Virus record (IMG/VR): IMGVR_UViG_3300030105_002498
Coordinates: 1 to 64,000 of that record
Direction: 5' to 3' (one strand)
From: a virus
DNA: 64,000 nucleotides
This document shows, piece after piece, positions 13,237 to 54,886 of the stretch. Position 1 is the first letter of the stretch. Each line of letters begins with the position of its first letter. The notes under the pieces were generated by a model that was not told where the DNA came from, did no database searches, and saw only the letters and a program-made list of their open reading frames with translations. The translations under genes and the position numbers were made by a program.

Positions 13237-14313
13237 TCATACTGTGTCTAATTTTACAAAATAGTATTGTCTAACTCTATTAGAAAACTCTTTAGAAATT
13301 TGCTTCCACTCTAAGTTGTTAGCTTTCATGGCTTCATGTTCTTCAGTAATGATGTCATTAGCAACCCATTTTAATAAGGCTGGCATGTGCTTTTTCTCTG
13401 TAGCTCCTACTTCCATAATACCTTGTTCAATTCTATTTTCACTACAAGAGTAATCAATGAAATCTCCAACACTTTGAAGTAGTGCCTCATCAACTGGTGC
13501 AAGTTGCTTGATGCTTCTGCCACCAGTTACAGAATGTTTAATACCTTTTACTTTAAAGATATGTTTAGCACCATTAACAATAGCAGACCAAACTACACCT
13601 TCTCCAACACCTTTAAATCCTAAAGAAGCTGTTACAGGACAAAGGGATTCAACCCTGTTGGTAATTTCAATCAGAATGTTTTGTATAGCAGCAGGAGTAT
13701 TGAAATCAATATCAAGTTCAAACTTAGGAAAATTATGGATATTGTAAATATCTTCAACAACAACTCTATCATATCCGTTATTTAACCATGATGCTTCCTC
13801 GGCAATTTTAATGCCACTAATATCTATCCAGATTTCTTCTTCTGTTACAGGATTCCAAATCAACAAATCAAATACATAGAAAGCTTTCTCTCTTTCAGAA
13901 ATTCCAACTCCTTTCTGTACACCTTTTCCTGCCCACTCTCCAAATAGATGCATCTGGTCTCCCTCAAAACATTCATACTTGTCCCACCAGAGCCTAAATA
14001 AATGAGTAAAATACTCTTTATTAGTAAGCTGGACAAACTGATTAAATCCGAAATGGGCATTTTTAGAAGAGAAATCATCAGCCTCAAGTAAAGAAGTTCT
14101 TTTCTGTGCTACAATACCTTCTTTAGGAGTGTAAGCAATCCCAGCATTTGTTCCATGTAACTTAACTGTCCCCTCAAAAGTAATAGTAGGTTTTTCGTAA
14201 GTATTGTAAACAGGGTCTCCATTTTCATCAGTATACGCATAGTTAGCTGTATGTTGAATGTCCCTGATTACATCTTTAAATTGTCTAATCTTGTGGTATG
14301 CTTTGAATTCCAT
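13237..14313 (-). CDS. RNA ligase (Rnl2-like nucleotidyltransferase)
   Basis: KLHGTN (motif I), FGEWAG, FYVFD, GEGVVW, FKVKG. Confidence 0.85.
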   Translation of the reverse strand: MEFKAYHKIRQFKDVIRDIQHTANYAYTDENGDPVYNTYEKPTITFEGTVKLHGTNAGIAYTPKEGIVAQKRTSLLEADDFSSKNAHFGFNQFVQLTNKEYFTHLFRLWWDKYECFEGDQMHLFGEWAGKGVQKGVGISEREKAFYVFDLLIWNPVTEEEIWIDISGIKIAEEASWLNNGYDRVVVEDIYNIHNFPKFELDIDFNTPAAIQNILIEITNRVESLCPVTASLGFKGVGEGVVWSAIVNGAKHIFKVKGIKHSVTGGRSIKQLAPVDEALLQSVGDFIDYSCSENRIEQGIMEVGATEKKHMPALLKWVANDIITEEHEAMKANNLEWKQISKEFSNRVRQYYFVKLDTV

Positions 14314-22463: not shown

Positions 22464-22743
22464 CTAGGAAAAATTCTTGCATCGTAGCATTAGCAAATTC
22501 GATTTGTTTCTCGATTAAAGCAAGTTCTACAATTGAATTTTGAAATTGGTCATTCCAAGTTTCTTCAACAGTAGCCAAATTGACTTGAAGAAGATTCTCT
22601 TTTCTCATTAACAATTCATCTCGCTTGTCTTCTAGTTTATCAATCAATCTCTCTTGATTACGAGCTAATGATTTAGCTTTTCGGATAGCTTTGTTTTGGT
22701 CAGCAGTTGCTTTGTCCTGAGTTAGGATTTGTAAAATTTTCAT
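22453..22743 (-). CDS. coiled-coil hypothetical protein
   Basis: Heptad-rich 96-aa ORF. Confidence 0.6.
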   Translation of the reverse strand: MKILQILTQDKATADQNKAIRKAKSLARNQERLIDKLEDKRDELLMRKENLLQVNLATVEETWNDQFQNSIVELALIEKQIEFANATMQEFFLDVK

Positions 22744-22818
22744 CTTGAGTTATTTTTATGAAATTAATAATAATAAATTTTAAAAGGAGATTAAAAACAC
22801 TACAATCTTTTCCTGTTG

Positions 22819-22863
22819 CGTCAACAACAGCATAACAAACTATAACGTCAACAACGTCATAAC
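22819..22863. repeat. direct repeat CGTCAACAAC-NN-CATAAC x2 (putative operator)
   Basis: Copies at 22819-22836 and 22846-22863 (27-bp period), adjacent to the 22-bp motif. Confidence 0.6.
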
Positions 22864-22875
22864 TAGTTATCTTCC

Positions 22876-22897
22876 CAAATTAGTGGGGGTCTTGAAG
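22876..22897 (-). promoter_or_regulatory. 22-bp phage-specific motif, copy 1 (putative early promoter)
   Basis: Plus strand CAAATTAGTGGGGGTCTTGAAG; intergenic and repeated. Confidence 0.7.
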
Positions 22898-22922
22898 GGA
22901 TGTTATTCCTCCATATGTATTT

Positions 22923-23002
22923 TGCATGACTGAGTGGAATCGAACCACTTTCTCTCCACCTAGAACTAAGAGCAAATTATCCAGTATATTATACAATCAC
23001 GC
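22923..23002 (-). ncRNA. degenerate tRNA-like element
   Basis: GCGTGATTG/CAGTCATGC acceptor-like stem and AGTGG-TTCGATT-CCACT T-arm; weak D and anticodon arms. Confidence 0.5.
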
Positions 23003-23008
23003 ATTTTG

Positions 23009-23151
23009 TAGGGATAGTGGGACTTGAACCCAGGTGTATACACTTTGTACTTCAGCATATACCTCAACTTCGTTCACGTTATAAAGTTTAAGAAACCTTT
23101 TACGACCTCCTGCTTATAAGACAGGTGCTCTACCAACTGAGCTATACCCCC
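23009..23151 (-). tRNA. tRNA-Ile(UAU) interrupted by a 70-nt insertion in the T-stem
   Basis: GGGGGTA-TA-GCTC-AGTTGGTA-GAGC-A-CCTGT-CT-TAT-AA-GCAGG-AGGTC-GT[70 nt]GGG-TTCAAGT-CCCAC-TATCCCT-A. Removing 23032-23101 gives a canonical 73-nt cloverleaf. Confidence 0.8.
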
Positions 23152-23244
23152 ATATTTAAAAATCCAGATAGACCCTGACACCATACTCAAACGTAACATC
23201 TTGTCAACTCCTAAGAGTTACGGGTATCTACCTGGTTTTTATTG

Positions 23245-23398
23245 TAGCGTAGATAGGAGTCGAACCTACAATCTTCACCTTAACGGTGATGCATAACGGA
23301 ATACTAAATAGGAAAACTTCAATTAGAATTAGTTGCAACTACTTCTTATTTTATAAATTCCATTTCAAACATATTCCTGTCCTTCATGCTTCTACGCA
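23245..23398 (-). ncRNA. tRNA-like element with a large structured D-loop insertion and a 5-nt anticodon loop (Asn-derived?)
   Basis: GCGTAG/CTACGC acceptor, GCAT/ATGC D-stem enclosing about 90 nt, TCACC-GTTAA-GGTGA arm, GTAGG-TTCGACT-CCTAT T-arm. Confidence 0.6.
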
Positions 23399-23474
23399 AA
23401 AGTTTATTCTTGAGAGACTTTAACTAGCTAGCTTTCAGTACGATATGATATACTTTATCATAATCTCTCAATTG

Positions 23475-23544
23475 TATCTTAGATGGGAGTCGAACCCATA
23501 ACTAATCCCGCTAGGGAGTACTCTACCTGTTGAGTTACTAAGAT
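23475..23544 (-). ncRNA. tRNA-like element with a 4-nt anticodon loop
   Basis: Perfect ATCTTAG/CTAAGAT acceptor, ACTC/GAGT D-stem and ATGGG-TTCGACT-CCCAT T-arm; the anticodon arm is TCCC-TAGC-GGGA. Confidence 0.7.
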
Positions 23545-23676
23545 TGCATATTAAAATGCTACCAAAAACATTATCTTTTCTAACCTGGCAATGGCTGTCT
23601 ACCCTCTTCACACCATGTACTCATGGATATTGCCCTTCAGAGTGGGTTGTTGAAGCCTTTTACGGGAAAAGATAAA

Positions 23677-23868
23677 TCAATAAGGTATTCTAATGTGAGA
23701 CCACCTTTTCTTAGTTCTAATATCTGATATAGTAACAGGATTTACTCCGTAGTCTTCAGCTATTTTCTTATTAATCCCATGATAAGGGTATCGTAATCTC
23801 TTTTTAATATCCCTCACATCATCAGGAGTAAGAACATCTCTATTATTAGGTATTTTACTTTCTCTCAT
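23677..23868 (-). CDS. stand-alone helix-turn-helix protein (like the C-terminal HTH of HNH endonucleases)
   Basis: LT.DDV.DI...IAEDYGVNPVTISDIRTKKRWSHI. Confidence 0.75.
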   Translation of the reverse strand: MRESKIPNNRDVLTPDDVRDIKKRLRYPYHGINKKIAEDYGVNPVTISDIRTKKRWSHIRIPY

Positions 23869-23968
23869 GACTTTAGATTGAATTATTAATTAATAAAATT
23901 GTGAGGAGAAGATTTTCTATGTATTACTTCTCCTCACTCAGGCGTGGGTTGACCTGATTTTTTGGGAT

Positions 23969-24416
23969 TTGTGGAGGTGCTGGGATTTGAACCCAGGTCC
24001 AGACAATTTTCTAAAATACAAATTATACATGTTTTGCACAGAGAATTTCACTCTACACACTTGAACGTCAACCTAAGTTGTCAAGTCACGGTTATTTCTA
24101 GAAATAACAAGAGCAAAGTTTTCCACTTCACAGTTTTGGGATTCGCAATTCCCAGGGCTAACCGAAGTTAACTTCCACCATCTCATTTTTACTTCAAACA
24201 AAAATGAGAAAAAAGAATTACTATGCTGCTTCCAAAACTTGTGTTCTAGGAGATACATAGGTTGCAGTCAGTAAGTTATTCGCAATAGCGTTGCTTACCT
24301 CTGCTTTGTTAATTGTATTAGCAATTATGTTTTACTTATTAGTATTTTAGTGGTTAATAAGCTTTCCACTACATGTTTGTACATCTTCCAATTCCTGTCG
24401 ATTCCATTTCACCCCC
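23969..24416 (-). ncRNA. ssrA: tmRNA (transfer-messenger RNA)
   Basis: 5' GGGGGTGAAATGGAATCGAC; 3' GGACCTGGGTTCAAATCCCAGCACCTCCA(CAA); G3.U70 pair; tag frame 24322-24221 ANTINKAEVSNAIANNLLTATYVSPRTQVLEAA then TAG TAA. Confidence 0.92.
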
Positions 24417-24626
24417 ATTAAAAATTAGCAACTGACTTCAGGACTTTACCTGCTTTCTAGTTATCACTTCGGAGTATCTATTAGAGTAAGCTCTGAGAGT
24501 TTTTTACTTTGTCAGTTACTAAAAGTGACCAGCCTACGCCTTACATCTGGTCTGTTACCCTCATTGTAATTTCCTCTGCTACTGAGAGAGTTCAAATTAC
24601 TGAGTCAATAGTCTAGAAACTATAAT

Positions 24627-25364
24627 CTAACCTAGTCTATTTTTCTGTATCTGATTTAGAACCTTTTTCTTAATTTGGATTCCAATCTTCTGCCTATCTT
24701 TTTTACTTGCTAGTAATAAAGCTGCTTCTTTGTTTCTCCTTTTCACTAAGCCTTTTAATTTTTTACCATTGGCATCACGAAAGTAAAGTTTCATAACTCT
24801 AGCTATTTCAATTCTATTTCCAGAGTTAATAGCAGAATTCAACTGCTTCCCGAAATGACCTACATTATAGTCTGTCACGGACAGAACTAATTTAGTCCAA
24901 CGATCTAACTTAGGAAACCTCTCATCAAGGTTCTGGTAAACTCTATTAAACTCTTTAGCTGCCCTTTTATTGGCTTCCTTTAGAGAAATAACTTCACCTT
25001 CCTTACTCTTTGTTCCCCAACCATTTGTCCATTGGTTAACATCCCAGTAAGCTGTAGGTCTAAAGCTTTCACAAGACTTCAGCAACAAGAATGTTAGTTC
25101 ATAGTCTGTCATTTCAGGACCTACCACTTTTTCCTCTTCTTCTAAAGAAGGAGAGACATTACTTACTCTGACAGCACTTGTGGATAAGTCTCGTAGTGTA
25201 ACTTCTTCTTTTAACTGTATCACTTCTTTATCAATGACCAGGTTAACATTTATTTTCTTAACGAAGAGTAACATTAAAATTAATATTACTAACGTCATTT
25301 TTCCCAGCACATTACAAAGAGTTGCAAAAGAGGGGATTTGTGATTGGATTGTTTGAAAATTCAT
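24627..25364 (-). CDS. GH24 lysozyme with N-terminal membrane anchor
   Basis: E-x8-D-x4-T triad region CESFRPTAYWDVNQWTNGWG, YNVG, GLVKRRNKE; hydrophobic segment at about residues 22-35. Confidence 0.85.
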   Translation of the reverse strand: MNFQTIQSQIPSFATLCNVLGKMTLVILILMLLFVKKINVNLVIDKEVIQLKEEVTLRDLSTSAVRVSNVSPSLEEEEKVVGPEMTDYELTFLLLKSCESFRPTAYWDVNQWTNGWGTKSKEGEVISLKEANKRAAKEFNRVYQNLDERFPKLDRWTKLVLSVTDYNVGHFGKQLNSAINSGNRIEIARVMKLYFRDANGKKLKGLVKRRNKEAALLLASKKDRQKIGIQIKKKVLNQIQKNRLG

Positions 25365-25406
25365 TATGAGTGTTTTTTAAATATTAAATATTAAGAATAA
25401 ATTTAG

Positions 25407-25480
25407 TACCCTGACTAGGATTTGAACCTAGAACCTACACTTTAGAAGAGTGTTGCTCTATCCAGTTGAGCTACCAAGGC
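25407..25480 (-). tRNA. tRNA-Arg(UCU)
   Basis: GCCTTGG-TA-GCTC-AACTGGATA-GAGC-A-ACACT-CT-TCT-AA-AGTGT-AGGTT-CTAGG-TTCAAAT-CCTAG-TCAGGGT-A. Confidence 0.9.
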
Positions 25481-25553
25481 AAAAGTATGAGGAGGATAAC
25501 CTTTGTTAAACTCCTCATTTGACCAATACTCTTCATTTTGAAGAATCTACTTC

Positions 25554-26357
25554 TTATAATTTTGTCAATTTAAAGGCGTTCTTTTCAACCCCATTAGATA
25601 TTGACACAACATATAAACCTGGATAAGACAAATCAATGTCTAATTTAGATGACTCCTGCGAGTCCCAAACGTCTTGGGATATTAACTTCCCTGTCATATC
25701 AAAGACCATTACCTTATAATAAAAGAACTCTTCCGAGGTCTTAAATGTAAAGGTATTTTCTCCTATAGTTTTATTGACTGTTACACCAGACTCTCCATCA
25801 TACCTAACAGCTACTATATTTGACAACTCATTTTTTCCATCAAAATCTACAAAATCTAGTTGGTAATAATTCATCCCATCAACAGGGTTATCATCATAAA
25901 ATGTCCATGATAATTGGTCAGTAATTGTATTTTGAATTACTTCAATTACCTTACCATTTCTTATTACCACTATATTTTCTAGATTCTCTTGCATTGCTAA
26001 CCTCCATTGTAGCTTAGTTCTTTCACCTTCGAGACTAACTTGAAAATCAATTAACTCAATAGGTAAAGACTGATTGTACTGACAAATCTCATTGCAGTCA
26101 ACAAACTTAATTGAATGTAAGAATGGGTTTCCAGTAACACTAGAAAATTTATATTCTCCTGCTGTTAATTGTCCTCCCCAATCAAATACACCAGTTCCAA
26201 CCGTGTCAATGTAAATGCTATCACTAGCACAAGGGACATCATTGAACTCAATAAATGTGTAATTACTATCTGTTGTCTGCTCATGTTCATTAGGACATTG
26301 CCCACTACATGCAGTTACAAATAAAAATAAAAATAAAATGTTGTATATGTTTTTCAT
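25554..26357 (-). CDS. secreted protein with a T9SS (Por) C-terminal sorting domain
   Basis: Signal peptide or lipobox (VTAC); LPIEL..F...LQW...F.DD.P..G.NYYQL...DFDG...LSNIVAV Ig-like module; CTD-like VFDMTGKLI...IDLS.PGLYVV...FKLTKL. Confidence 0.8.
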   Translation of the reverse strand: MKNIYNILFLFLFVTACSGQCPNEHEQTTDSNYTFIEFNDVPCASDSIYIDTVGTGVFDWGGQLTAGEYKFSSVTGNPFLHSIKFVDCNEICQYNQSLPIELIDFQVSLEGERTKLQWRLAMQENLENIVVIRNGKVIEVIQNTITDQLSWTFYDDNPVDGMNYYQLDFVDFDGKNELSNIVAVRYDGESGVTVNKTIGENTFTFKTSEEFFYYKVMVFDMTGKLISQDVWDSQESSKLDIDLSYPGLYVVSISNGVEKNAFKLTKL

Positions 26358-32105: not shown

Positions 32106-32179
32106 GGGTTTTTAGCTCAATTGGTTAGAGCACCTCACTCATAATGAGAAGGTTCTTAGTTCGAGTCTAAGGAGACCCA
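32106..32179 (+). tRNA. tRNA with CAU anticodon (Ile2-like or elongator Met)
   Basis: GGGTTTT-TA-GCTC-AATTGGTTA-GAGC-A-CCTCA-CT-CAT-AA-TGAGA-AGGTT-CTTAG-TTCGAGT-CTAAG-GAGACCC-A; lacks initiator features. Confidence 0.88.
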
Positions 32180-53623: not shown

Positions 53624-54886
53624 ATGATTAATAAAGAATTGATTAACCACATACTATCAAACTCAGGACAATTAAGAGATAAGGAAACTTGGTATGATGT
53701 GGGAGAAAAATTTCATGTTACTGCCCCCGATGAAGACAAAGCTAAAATAGACAACACTTACAAGAAAAAAGCCGTAGCCAGGAAAGCTCAACAAATCTGG
53801 CAAAAATATATAGGTCAAAAGAATGACTTGAAATTAGACAGAGAAACTTATGTCAATGGAAAGTTAAAATTCGAGACCTTTAAGAAGAAGCCTGATTCAG
53901 CAGAAATGGATTTTGAAGGCTACAGTTTAGAGAGAGTTACCACCAATCCCTATGGTGGAATGTGGATGAAGTATAAGAAAGATGGACCAACCCCAGACAG
54001 CTTCAAAGAAATCCTAGAAGCTGGAAATATCGAAGCTTGGAATATAGATAGAAATATAATTAAAGGAGAATCAGACTTAATGGTTCTTATCTCTGATACT
54101 CATATTGGAGCGAAATCTAGTAATGGTGAAGCTTACACTAAAGAAGTATATCAAGCTAGATTAAAATCAATCACAGACAATGTAATTAATAATCAAACTG
54201 CACCTTACAAAAGGTTGATAGTAGTTCACTTAGGAGACTGGTTAGATAGTGTATTTACTAATAGTGATTCTAAAACAGGATTGACTACAAGAGGTGGGCA
54301 TGAGATGCCATCTTTATACTCTCCTGTGGAATCTTTTAAGATGGCTTATGAAACTCACCTGAGTTTTATTAAAACACTTAGAGCAGAGGTAGAGCATGAA
54401 TCTATGGAAGTTATAATGATGACCAATGCTAACCATGATTCTGATAGTGCTTTTGCAGCTTCAACTTGTTGTGAAATCCACTTAAAATACTTAGACCCTG
54501 AAATCAAATACACCACTTCAAGAGATTTTATTGAAACTTTGAAGGTGCAAGGAGTGACTATAGGACTTTCACATGGAAAGGACAGAGAGTATTTGAATAG
54601 ACCCTTACCTAGAGTGATGACAGAAAAGGTAGAGAATTACTTAATTTCCTACTGTCTGAATCATAACATTAATCCTAAAGAATTTATTTGTTTATCTGGA
54701 GACCAACATAATTGGTCAGATACTTTCTCACAAAATTTAAGGTATATCAAATGCCCATCTCTTTTTGGGTCTTCAGAGCATTCAGAAATGAATTATGGAA
54801 GGTCTATTATTGGATTTGTAACTGCGGAATTTAAGCCTGGAGCTACAATTAAAAATGGAGTCATTATAAAACCTGAACTATTATAA
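53624..54886 (+). CDS. calcineurin-like metallophosphoesterase
   Basis: SDTHIG, LGDWLD, NHD, SHG and GDQH motifs. Confidence 0.85.
   Translation: MINKELINHILSNSGQLRDKETWYDVGEKFHVTAPDEDKAKIDNTYKKKAVARKAQQIWQKYIGQKNDLKLDRETYVNGKLKFETFKKKPDSAEMDFEGYSLERVTTNPYGGMWMKYKKDGPTPDSFKEILEAGNIEAWNIDRNIIKGESDLMVLISDTHIGAKSSNGEAYTKEVYQARLKSITDNVINNQTAPYKRLIVVHLGDWLDSVFTNSDSKTGLTTRGGHEMPSLYSPVESFKMAYETHLSFIKTLRAEVEHESMEVIMMTNANHDSDSAFAASTCCEIHLKYLDPEIKYTTSRDFIETLKVQGVTIGLSHGKDREYLNRPLPRVMTEKVENYLISYCLNHNINPKEFICLSGDQHNWSDTFSQNLRYIKCPSLFGSSEHSEMNYGRSIIGFVTAEFKPGATIKNGVIIKPELL

Follow-up and report, generated by a model that had tools for sequence, protein, structure and literature searches.

The gene considered here raises the question of what becomes of 70 nt of additional sequence that lie within a helix of an otherwise ordinary tRNA, and whether they are removed from the transcript, stay in an oversized tRNA-shaped RNA, or mark a gene that has been broken. 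The gene, for a tRNA-Ile(UAU), is on the minus strand of the window, by which we mean the whole 64-kb stretch of DNA analysed. The window is the first part of a 93,330-bp phage genome (with a 99-bp overlap between its ends) that is ~90% coding, uses the standard genetic code, and comes from marine water and sediment metagenomes of three studies. Its closest cultured relatives are the Flavobacterium psychrophilum phages Fpv1, Fpv2, and FpV4 (~89 kb), with a helicase identity of 46%, and a single IMG/VR contig (L001) is close to it (97% protein and 98% DNA identity), the next relatives being at ~50%. In FpV4 (KT876724.1 78191-80739) the helicase match is in two pieces with an annotated endodeoxyribonuclease in between, which suggests a mobile insertion (an intron or intein) in that helicase gene. 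The interrupted tRNA gene and its parts are as follows.

23151..23009, minus strand: the interrupted tRNA-Ile(UAU) gene (Rfam tRNA model, 50.7 bits; tRNA-Ile(tat) in ARAGORN with introns allowed)
23102..23151, minus strand: 5′ part, tRNA positions 1-50 (Rfam alignment, covariance model, and ARAGORN on the joined sequence)
23032..23101, minus strand: insert of 70 nt (comparison with 16 uninterrupted phage tRNA-Ile(UAU) genes)
23009..23031, minus strand: 3′ part, tRNA positions 51-73 (Rfam, ARAGORN, and covariance model)

The Rfam score is reached with the insert in place and compares with a threshold of 29 bits for the tRNA model (RF00005). The 5′ part holds an acceptor strand, the D-arm, the anticodon arm (loop CUUAUAA), the variable loop AGGUC, and G49 U50 of the T-stem; the 3′ part holds G51-G53, the T-loop UUCAAGU, C61-C65, an acceptor strand, and the discriminator A. 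As RNA, exon 1 reads GGGGGUA UA GCUC AGUUGGUA GAGC A CCUGU CUUAUAA GCAGG AGGUC GU and is followed by the 70-nt insert, after which exon 2 reads GGG UUCAAGU CCCAC UAUCCCU A. With a slash marking the boundary, the unspliced junctions are GGUCGU/AAAAGG and ACACCU/GGGUUC, and the joined exons read GGAGGUCGU/GGGUUCAAG across the junction. Because a U flanks both sides, the edge of the insert is ambiguous by one base, between GU/A...CCU/G and G/UA...CC/UG (positions 50/51 or 49/50).

Deletion of 23032-23101 leaves 73 nt that form a perfect cloverleaf with both ARAGORN and RNAfold, have the T-stem GUGGG/CCCAC, are called tRNA-Ile(tat) by ARAGORN, and carry U8, A14, G18-G19, A21, U33, G53, U54-U55-C56, A58, and C61. 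The sequence-only reading of this DNA had described a tRNA-Ile(UAU) with intact halves whose T-stem is restored on excision of the insert, and on both points it agrees with these results. The anticodon UAU in a 7-nt loop, A37, A38, and the discriminator A73 are as in other phage tRNA-Ile(UAU) genes, and apart from the split T-stem the features of a working tRNA are all intact. UAU anticodons are rare in bacteria; tRNA-Ile(UAU) genes are common in phages, as seen in our search of viral contigs.

The joined sequence is found as an ordinary tRNA-Ile(UAU) elsewhere. A search for AGGTC-GTGGG-TTCRANT-CCCAC preceded by a TTATAA anticodon loop gave 23 viral contigs, a match far beyond chance, and as these provide 16 distinct uninterrupted genes with the exact joined sequence, the locus corresponds to an insertion between tRNA positions 50 and 51. 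A covariance search, suggested earlier as a check on the assignment, finds the locus at 46.8 bits with a model built from the 16 uninterrupted genes, and the alignment pairs G49-U50 with A64-C65 and jumps 83 nt to do so. Marine metagenomes also contain tRNAs from other organisms whose alignment to the 5′ part begins at 23144, breaks off at 23101-23104, and gives way to their own T-arm. By these comparisons the locus is evidently a normal class I tRNA-Ile(UAU) gene that has gained 70 nt in the 5′ strand of its T-stem.

The insert is known from one lineage, comprising the window, IMG/VR contig L001, and two metagenome variants, all ~98% identical. It is kept whole in L001 and in the lineage contig of run X3, whereas a contig of run X4 spans just its 3′ 43 nt and keeps that part, and the samples of three studies that have the gene and insert date from 2014 to 2024 and include both water and sediment. 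Among the runs found to contain the phage there is no RNA data set. Two substitutions are seen in the gene among these copies: A57 to G57 in the T-loop, which keeps a purine, and an A-to-G change at position 4 of the insert, by which an A-U pair of its end-to-end pairing becomes G.U. As the copies are all ~98% identical, conservation of the insert is uninformative on selection. Uninterrupted counterparts with an identical joined sequence do occur in unrelated phages, as described above, but no insert-free allele was found in the lineage or its relatives in IMG/VR, the JGI metagenomes, or DNA contigs across the locus. Several gapped patterns yielded no second tRNA split in the T-stem in IMG/VR or the JGI metagenomes, and a search with the exact 26-mer of the anticodon arm gave the 98%-identical contig as its sole match. 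Gapped-pattern matches in viral contigs beyond L001 were rejected as promoter-plus-tRNA or tandem-tRNA false positives, and 36 matches from JGI as ordinary tRNA-Ile(UAU) genes with a partial 3′ duplicate or as unrelated tandem genes. Many environmental tRNA-Ile(UAU) genes (JGI contigs L050-L085) show such a partial duplication, the variable loop and T-arm of the gene's 3′ end being repeated 40-60 nt downstream, which is the pattern of elements integrating into tRNA genes.

The insert itself is rich in A+U; its two ends can pair over 4 bp (AGGU/ACCU), and it has one 9-bp hairpin. It had been called structured, a description that finds no support, as the best fold of its RNA strand (-12.2 kcal/mol) is little different from that of shuffled sequences (-9.7 +/- 2.6; z -0.94, with 37 of 200 shuffles folding as well) and it has neither an Rfam family nor a homologue; for the plus strand z is 0.02. 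We thus find in it no domain fold clearly above chance, among sampled relatives that are all ~98% identical. The hairpin proposed earlier, AGGTGTAT/ATATACCT, was written in plus-strand letters and has an A.C mismatch in the RNA strand; the latter can nonetheless form a hairpin of 9 bp, GUAUAUGCU/AGUGUAUAC. No second copy of the insert was found in the phage genome and no homologue among GenBank phages; promoter and terminator scans gave counts at chance level, and pairing of the insert with the exons or neighbouring RNAs is no better than for shuffled sequence. We rejected the insert as a tRNA-shaped module for RNase P/Z, its ends pairing over 4 bp only and no T-loop-like hairpin being present, and judged a 30-codon reading frame from its AUG behind GAGG to be a chance occurrence.

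Removal of the insert by its own catalysis, or as an archaeal-type bulge-helix-bulge intron, is highly improbable. In a sensitive search against Rfam (E<=1), 22600-25700 yielded the tmRNA and tRNAs only, without any group I, group II, or small-ribozyme family, and the earlier judgement that 70 nt is too short for a group I or II intron is upheld, the catalytic core of group I being roughly 100 nt (PMC4033280). Group I introns of bacterial and phage tRNAs (PMC3984707, PMC4033280) are likewise intervening sequences in tRNA genes of the bacterial world, but they are self-splicing, at least 200 nt long, and located in the anticodon loop, whereas the present insert is in the T-stem. In archaeal tRNAs, short introns occur at many non-canonical positions and are spliced by proteins, EndA and RtcB (PMC4033280, PMC4090602), and the likeness is real in that these too are short, lie at positions other than 37/38, and separate exons that re-form a tRNA, and in that splicing in the present case would also rely on proteins. 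A bulge-helix-bulge consists of two 3-nt bulges at the exon-intron junctions with a 4-bp helix between them, however, and at the insert only one of the four central pairs forms in either cut register, with flanking helices of 0-1 bp. The host is bacterial, and the phage genome has neither a tRNA splicing endonuclease (PF01974) nor RtcB (PF01139) at E<=1 in searches to which control genomes respond. We regard both the bulge-helix-bulge and the ribozyme readings as essentially excluded.

The enzymes of the phage suggest a different route. The sequence-only reading had pointed to an Rnl2-like ligase at 13237 and a phosphoesterase at 53624, and the former is borne out.

13237..14313, minus strand: T4 Rnl2-type ATP-dependent RNA ligase (PF09414, 46.9 bits, residues 46-256)

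The product also matches phrog_548 ('RNA ligase') over its whole length (residues 1-352, E 3e-51), the ligase family profile matches the T4 Rnl2 structure 2hvq (residues 34-331, E 7e-13), and motif I, KLHGTN, is invariant in 39 ligase homologues. With the lysine motif KxxG and the C-terminal domain both present, gene 13237-14313 is, as far as its sequence can tell, a true full-length T4 Rnl2 homologue. The supposed phosphoesterase has no Pfam match, is an 'exonuclease' by PHROG alone, and lies in the late/lysis region, and that assignment is not supported; no PNK-type kinase was found in the phage genome. Rnl2-type ligases require 3′-OH/5′-P ends, whereas EndA yields a 2′,3′-cyclic phosphate and a 5′-OH. 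T4 Rnl2 closes 3′-OH/5′-PO4 nicks in duplexes in which the broken strand is RNA (PMC3884662), and the ligase is thus a candidate for sealing a nick in a re-formed T-stem. In this the phage, with its full-length Rnl2 homologue, resembles T4 Rnl2 and the tRNA repair by phage ligases (PMC3884662; DraRnl, PMC1807946): a cut T-stem would be a duplex nick, the preferred substrate of Rnl2, although the link between ligase and tRNA is one that we infer.

The ligase is absent from three near-complete relatives (at least 92% complete) with few or no tRNAs, and among contigs of at least 30 kb with a member of the ligase family (viral contigs, L110-L188) 27 of 29 have tRNAs, many of them 13-65. A general tie between the ligase and interrupted tRNAs was rejected, as the tRNA matches in 20 stretches of ligase-bearing phage contigs are all at most 95 nt (156/156) and none is interrupted. 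Since the family accompanies tRNAs in general, its presence fits tRNA repair, which would explain it equally well.

The tRNA-Ile gene lies within a 1.9-kb protein-free stretch that holds a cluster of RNA genes. Downstream of the tmRNA the order is a tRNA body with a 4-nt anticodon loop, a tRNA body with a D-loop insert, a hairpin, the tRNA-Ile, and a CUA tRNA:

23969..24416, minus strand: one-piece tmRNA, at the head of the cluster (Rfam RF00023, 98.8 bits)
23475..23544, minus strand: tRNA-shaped gene with a 4-nt anticodon loop, UAGC (Rfam tRNA, 48.8 bits, and fold)
23245..23399, minus strand: tRNA-shaped gene whose D-loop has an insert of ~100 nt and whose anticodon loop is 5 nt, GUUAA (fold)
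23152..23244, minus strand: 93-nt hairpin (fold of -27.1 kcal/mol, z -3.32, a level reached by 2 of 200 shuffles)
22924..23000, minus strand: tRNA with the amber-reading anticodon CUA (ARAGORN; unreported by the Rfam tRNA model)

CAA follows the discriminator base in all five cluster RNAs and in the phage tRNA-Tyr, so that CCA is not encoded in the tRNA-Ile gene. The tmRNA gene appears to be a conserved feature of the phage group, being found upstream of a Dda-like helicase in nine of the related loci scanned (L001, L003, L004, L006, L007, L008, L010, L012, and L017) and, unannotated, in the cultured Flavobacterium phage Fpv1 (KU599877.1; 58.2 bits); the sites include L245:4200-4614. The tRNA cluster is absent from the relatives with ~50% helicase identity and from Fpv1, all of which have the tmRNA gene upstream of the helicase.

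The RNAs between the tmRNA and the tRNA-Ile are unusual. The gene at 23475..23544 has four intact stems, and a C-to-G change of base 27 in L001 replaces a C.U mismatch by a G.U pair, but an anticodon loop of just 4 nt makes its RNA unable to decode; a role as decoy or processing signal is conceivable. At 23245..23399 the minimum-energy fold has an acceptor stem, a D-stem (GCAU/AUGC), an anticodon hairpin, and a T-arm (GUAGG/CCUAU), and the 3′ half is matched by the tRNA-Ile(UAU) covariance model at 20.9 bits. Read as 7 nt (CGUUAAG), its anticodon loop would show UUA. The 93-nt hairpin, followed by the U-run AUUUUUA, lies directly upstream of the tRNA-Ile 5′ end and may be a terminator or processing element inside the cluster. 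In the CUA tRNA, 8 nt downstream of tRNA-Ile, the anticodon stem is 6 bp long and the variable loop has 3 nt; a different 11.9-kb contig of run X3 has this same tRNA with 7 differences. TAG is the stop codon of 13 of 80 long reading frames of the phage, and recoding is not needed.

The three odd tRNA bodies have four insertions or deletions in total with nearly all stem pairs intact, a ratio that is atypical for neutral decay and suggests that at least the tRNA bodies of the cluster are kept for some purpose. A body built like that at 23245-23399 is the sole tRNA match (110 nt) in an unrelated complete 84-kb phage that has an Rnl2-type ligase (L191; G031:C1:76045-76154, plus strand), with ~45 nt in the D-loop and a 6-nt anticodon loop. 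Outside the cluster, a CAU tRNA at 32106-32179 (plus strand) is 90% identical over 58 nt to the 'tRNA-Met' of Cellulophaga phages phi4:1 and phi17:2; it may be a tRNA-Met or a lysidine-type tRNA-Ile2, and if modified may read AUA.

The reading we favour, at a probability of about 0.4, is that the insert is removed by proteins and the break sealed as a nick in the T-stem. The insert would be an intervening sequence excised from the precursor by proteins and not by itself, with cellular RNases that leave 3′-OH and 5′-phosphate ends cutting both junctions. G49-U50 would then re-pair with A64-C65 next to G51-G53/C61-C63, leaving a nick within a duplex, which is the substrate that an Rnl2-type ligase prefers, and the phage ligase would seal it without need of an end-healing enzyme. 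The product would be a 73-nt tRNA reading AUA, in line with phage tRNAs that read the A-ending codons AGA and ACA, and serving what looks like a phage need, as AUA makes up 27% of its isoleucine codons.

Excision by proteins is favoured by flawless exons that join into the exact sequence of ordinary phage genes, and by the position of the insert in a stem rather than a loop, as a ligase of duplex nicks requires. The phage has a full-length Rnl2 homologue that three near-complete relatives without these tRNAs lack; the absence of kinase/phosphatase and of RtcB is consistent with 3′-OH/5′-P chemistry; and the insert is kept, as far as the contigs of three studies cover it, both substitutions in the gene being conservative. 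Short unexplained tRNA introns have a precedent in Lak megaphages (10.1101/356790), and the indels with intact stems in the neighbouring tRNA-derived genes are unlike neutral decay. Against it, the insert has no significant fold, homologue, or bulge-helix-bulge, no candidate endonuclease was found in the phage, and, not being tRNA-shaped, the insert offers no obvious handle for RNase P or RNase Z. The event is a single one in one lineage of ~98% identical copies without an insert-free allele among those searched, the predicted fold of the unspliced RNA favours a different T-stem, the ligase family occurs elsewhere beside normal tRNAs, where repair explains it as well, and AUA may already be read by the CAU tRNA if modified. 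The earlier interpretation, of a protein-spliced intron or a tRNA scaffold displaying an extra RNA domain, keeps its ligase and loses its phosphoesterase; no splicing endonuclease was found in the genome, and the structure of the insert is neither significant nor conserved. That the locus represents a type of tRNA splicing new to the bacterial world, with a short non-catalytic T-stem intron that lacks a bulge-helix-bulge, is cut by RNases to 3′-OH/5′-phosphate ends, and is sealed by Rnl2, is a more doubtful proposition than excision as such.

It is somewhat unlikely, although a serious competitor, that the gene is simply disrupted, a foreign 70-bp piece having entered a dispensable tRNA gene that no longer gives a working tRNA and in which decay is yet to come. 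A single event in one lineage with ~98% identical copies is what this would produce, and the insert does resemble random A+U-rich sequence (z -0.94, and no homologue or known motif found). At such divergence the 73 exon bases should have taken up only ~1 neutral change, and intact exons therefore prove nothing. The relatives live without any of these tRNAs, the CAU tRNA at 32106-32179 may serve AUA, and two adjoining tRNA-shaped genes are unable to decode. However, mutations that insert 70 bp of unrelated sequence are rare, and the cluster combines four indels with almost no stem-breaking substitutions, the reverse of the usual ratio in decay. Gene and insert have also persisted from 2014 to 2024 in three studies of water and sediment, and both observed substitutions are compatible with structure.

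Quite unlikely, in our estimate, is that the insert is never removed and that the 143-nt cloverleaf functions with an oversized two-hairpin 'variable region', as an odd Ile tRNA or a non-decoding RNA. The Rfam tRNA model does assign the whole insert to the variable region, at the cost of one C.C mismatch, and its score is 50.7 bits nonetheless. In the minimum-energy fold of the unspliced RNA (-36.6 kcal/mol) the acceptor, D, and anticodon arms are kept, a 4-bp T-stem is made of the last U of the insert with G51-G53 (pair probability of the insert U with A64, 0.56), and G49-U50 are held in a weak hairpin with the insert start; this is exactly the retained form, and it is ~4 kcal/mol better than the fold in which the split T-stem is forced (G49-C65, U50-A64; -32.4 kcal/mol). 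The precursor could thus, by prediction, resemble a tRNA with a 75-nt variable region, as in the Rfam alignment. That tRNA-framed RNAs exist in phages is shown by the neighbours at 23475-23544 and 23245-23399, both of them tRNA bodies whose anticodon loops are unusable and the latter with 100 nt inserted in its D-loop, and by the 110-nt body of the unrelated ligase-bearing phage. A displayed domain would be expected to be well folded and conserved, however, and the insert is neither. G49-U50 complete the T-stem perfectly (~1 in 16 by chance) and would have no role in a retained form, and a canonical anticodon loop would be useless in a non-decoding RNA. Natural variable arms are single hairpins of about 10-25 nt, and to our knowledge a variable region of 75 nt far exceeds those of natural class II tRNAs, which we count against retention. 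The locus differs from class II tRNAs (Leu, Ser, and bacterial Tyr; PMC4033280) also in its two weak hairpins, its 4-bp T-stem, and its evident origin as a class I tRNA-Ile that took up an insertion.

Bacterial tRNA genes have been held to be uniform and, as far as known, to be interrupted by nothing but self-splicing introns at position 37/38 (PMC4033280), and our literature search found no T-stem insert in a bacterial or phage tRNA. The nearest parallel is in the Lak megaphages, for which 'enigmatic' short introns in tRNA genes were reported (Devoto et al., preprint 10.1101/356790). These too are phages of Bacteroidota-type hosts with short inserts, outside the known intron classes, in otherwise normal tRNAs. 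The Lak inserts, though, were predicted by tRNAscan in eukaryote mode and lie at or near the anticodon loop rather than in the T-stem; they are shared by several tRNAs and do not differ between cohorts, whereas the present insert is confined to a single lineage, without relatives. Interrupted phage tRNA genes are therefore already on record, and it is the T-stem site, here in a single lineage, that appears to be new.

An insert inside a helix, in a phage with a ligase specialised in duplex nicks, makes for a concrete hypothesis. If the RNA is not spliced, the gene either shows how far a tRNA body tolerates insertion or is freshly broken. We know of no established natural substrate for Rnl2. 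If the insert is spliced out, this would be protein-dependent tRNA splicing in phage-infected bacteria, and would give Rnl2 a natural role with its first natural substrate.
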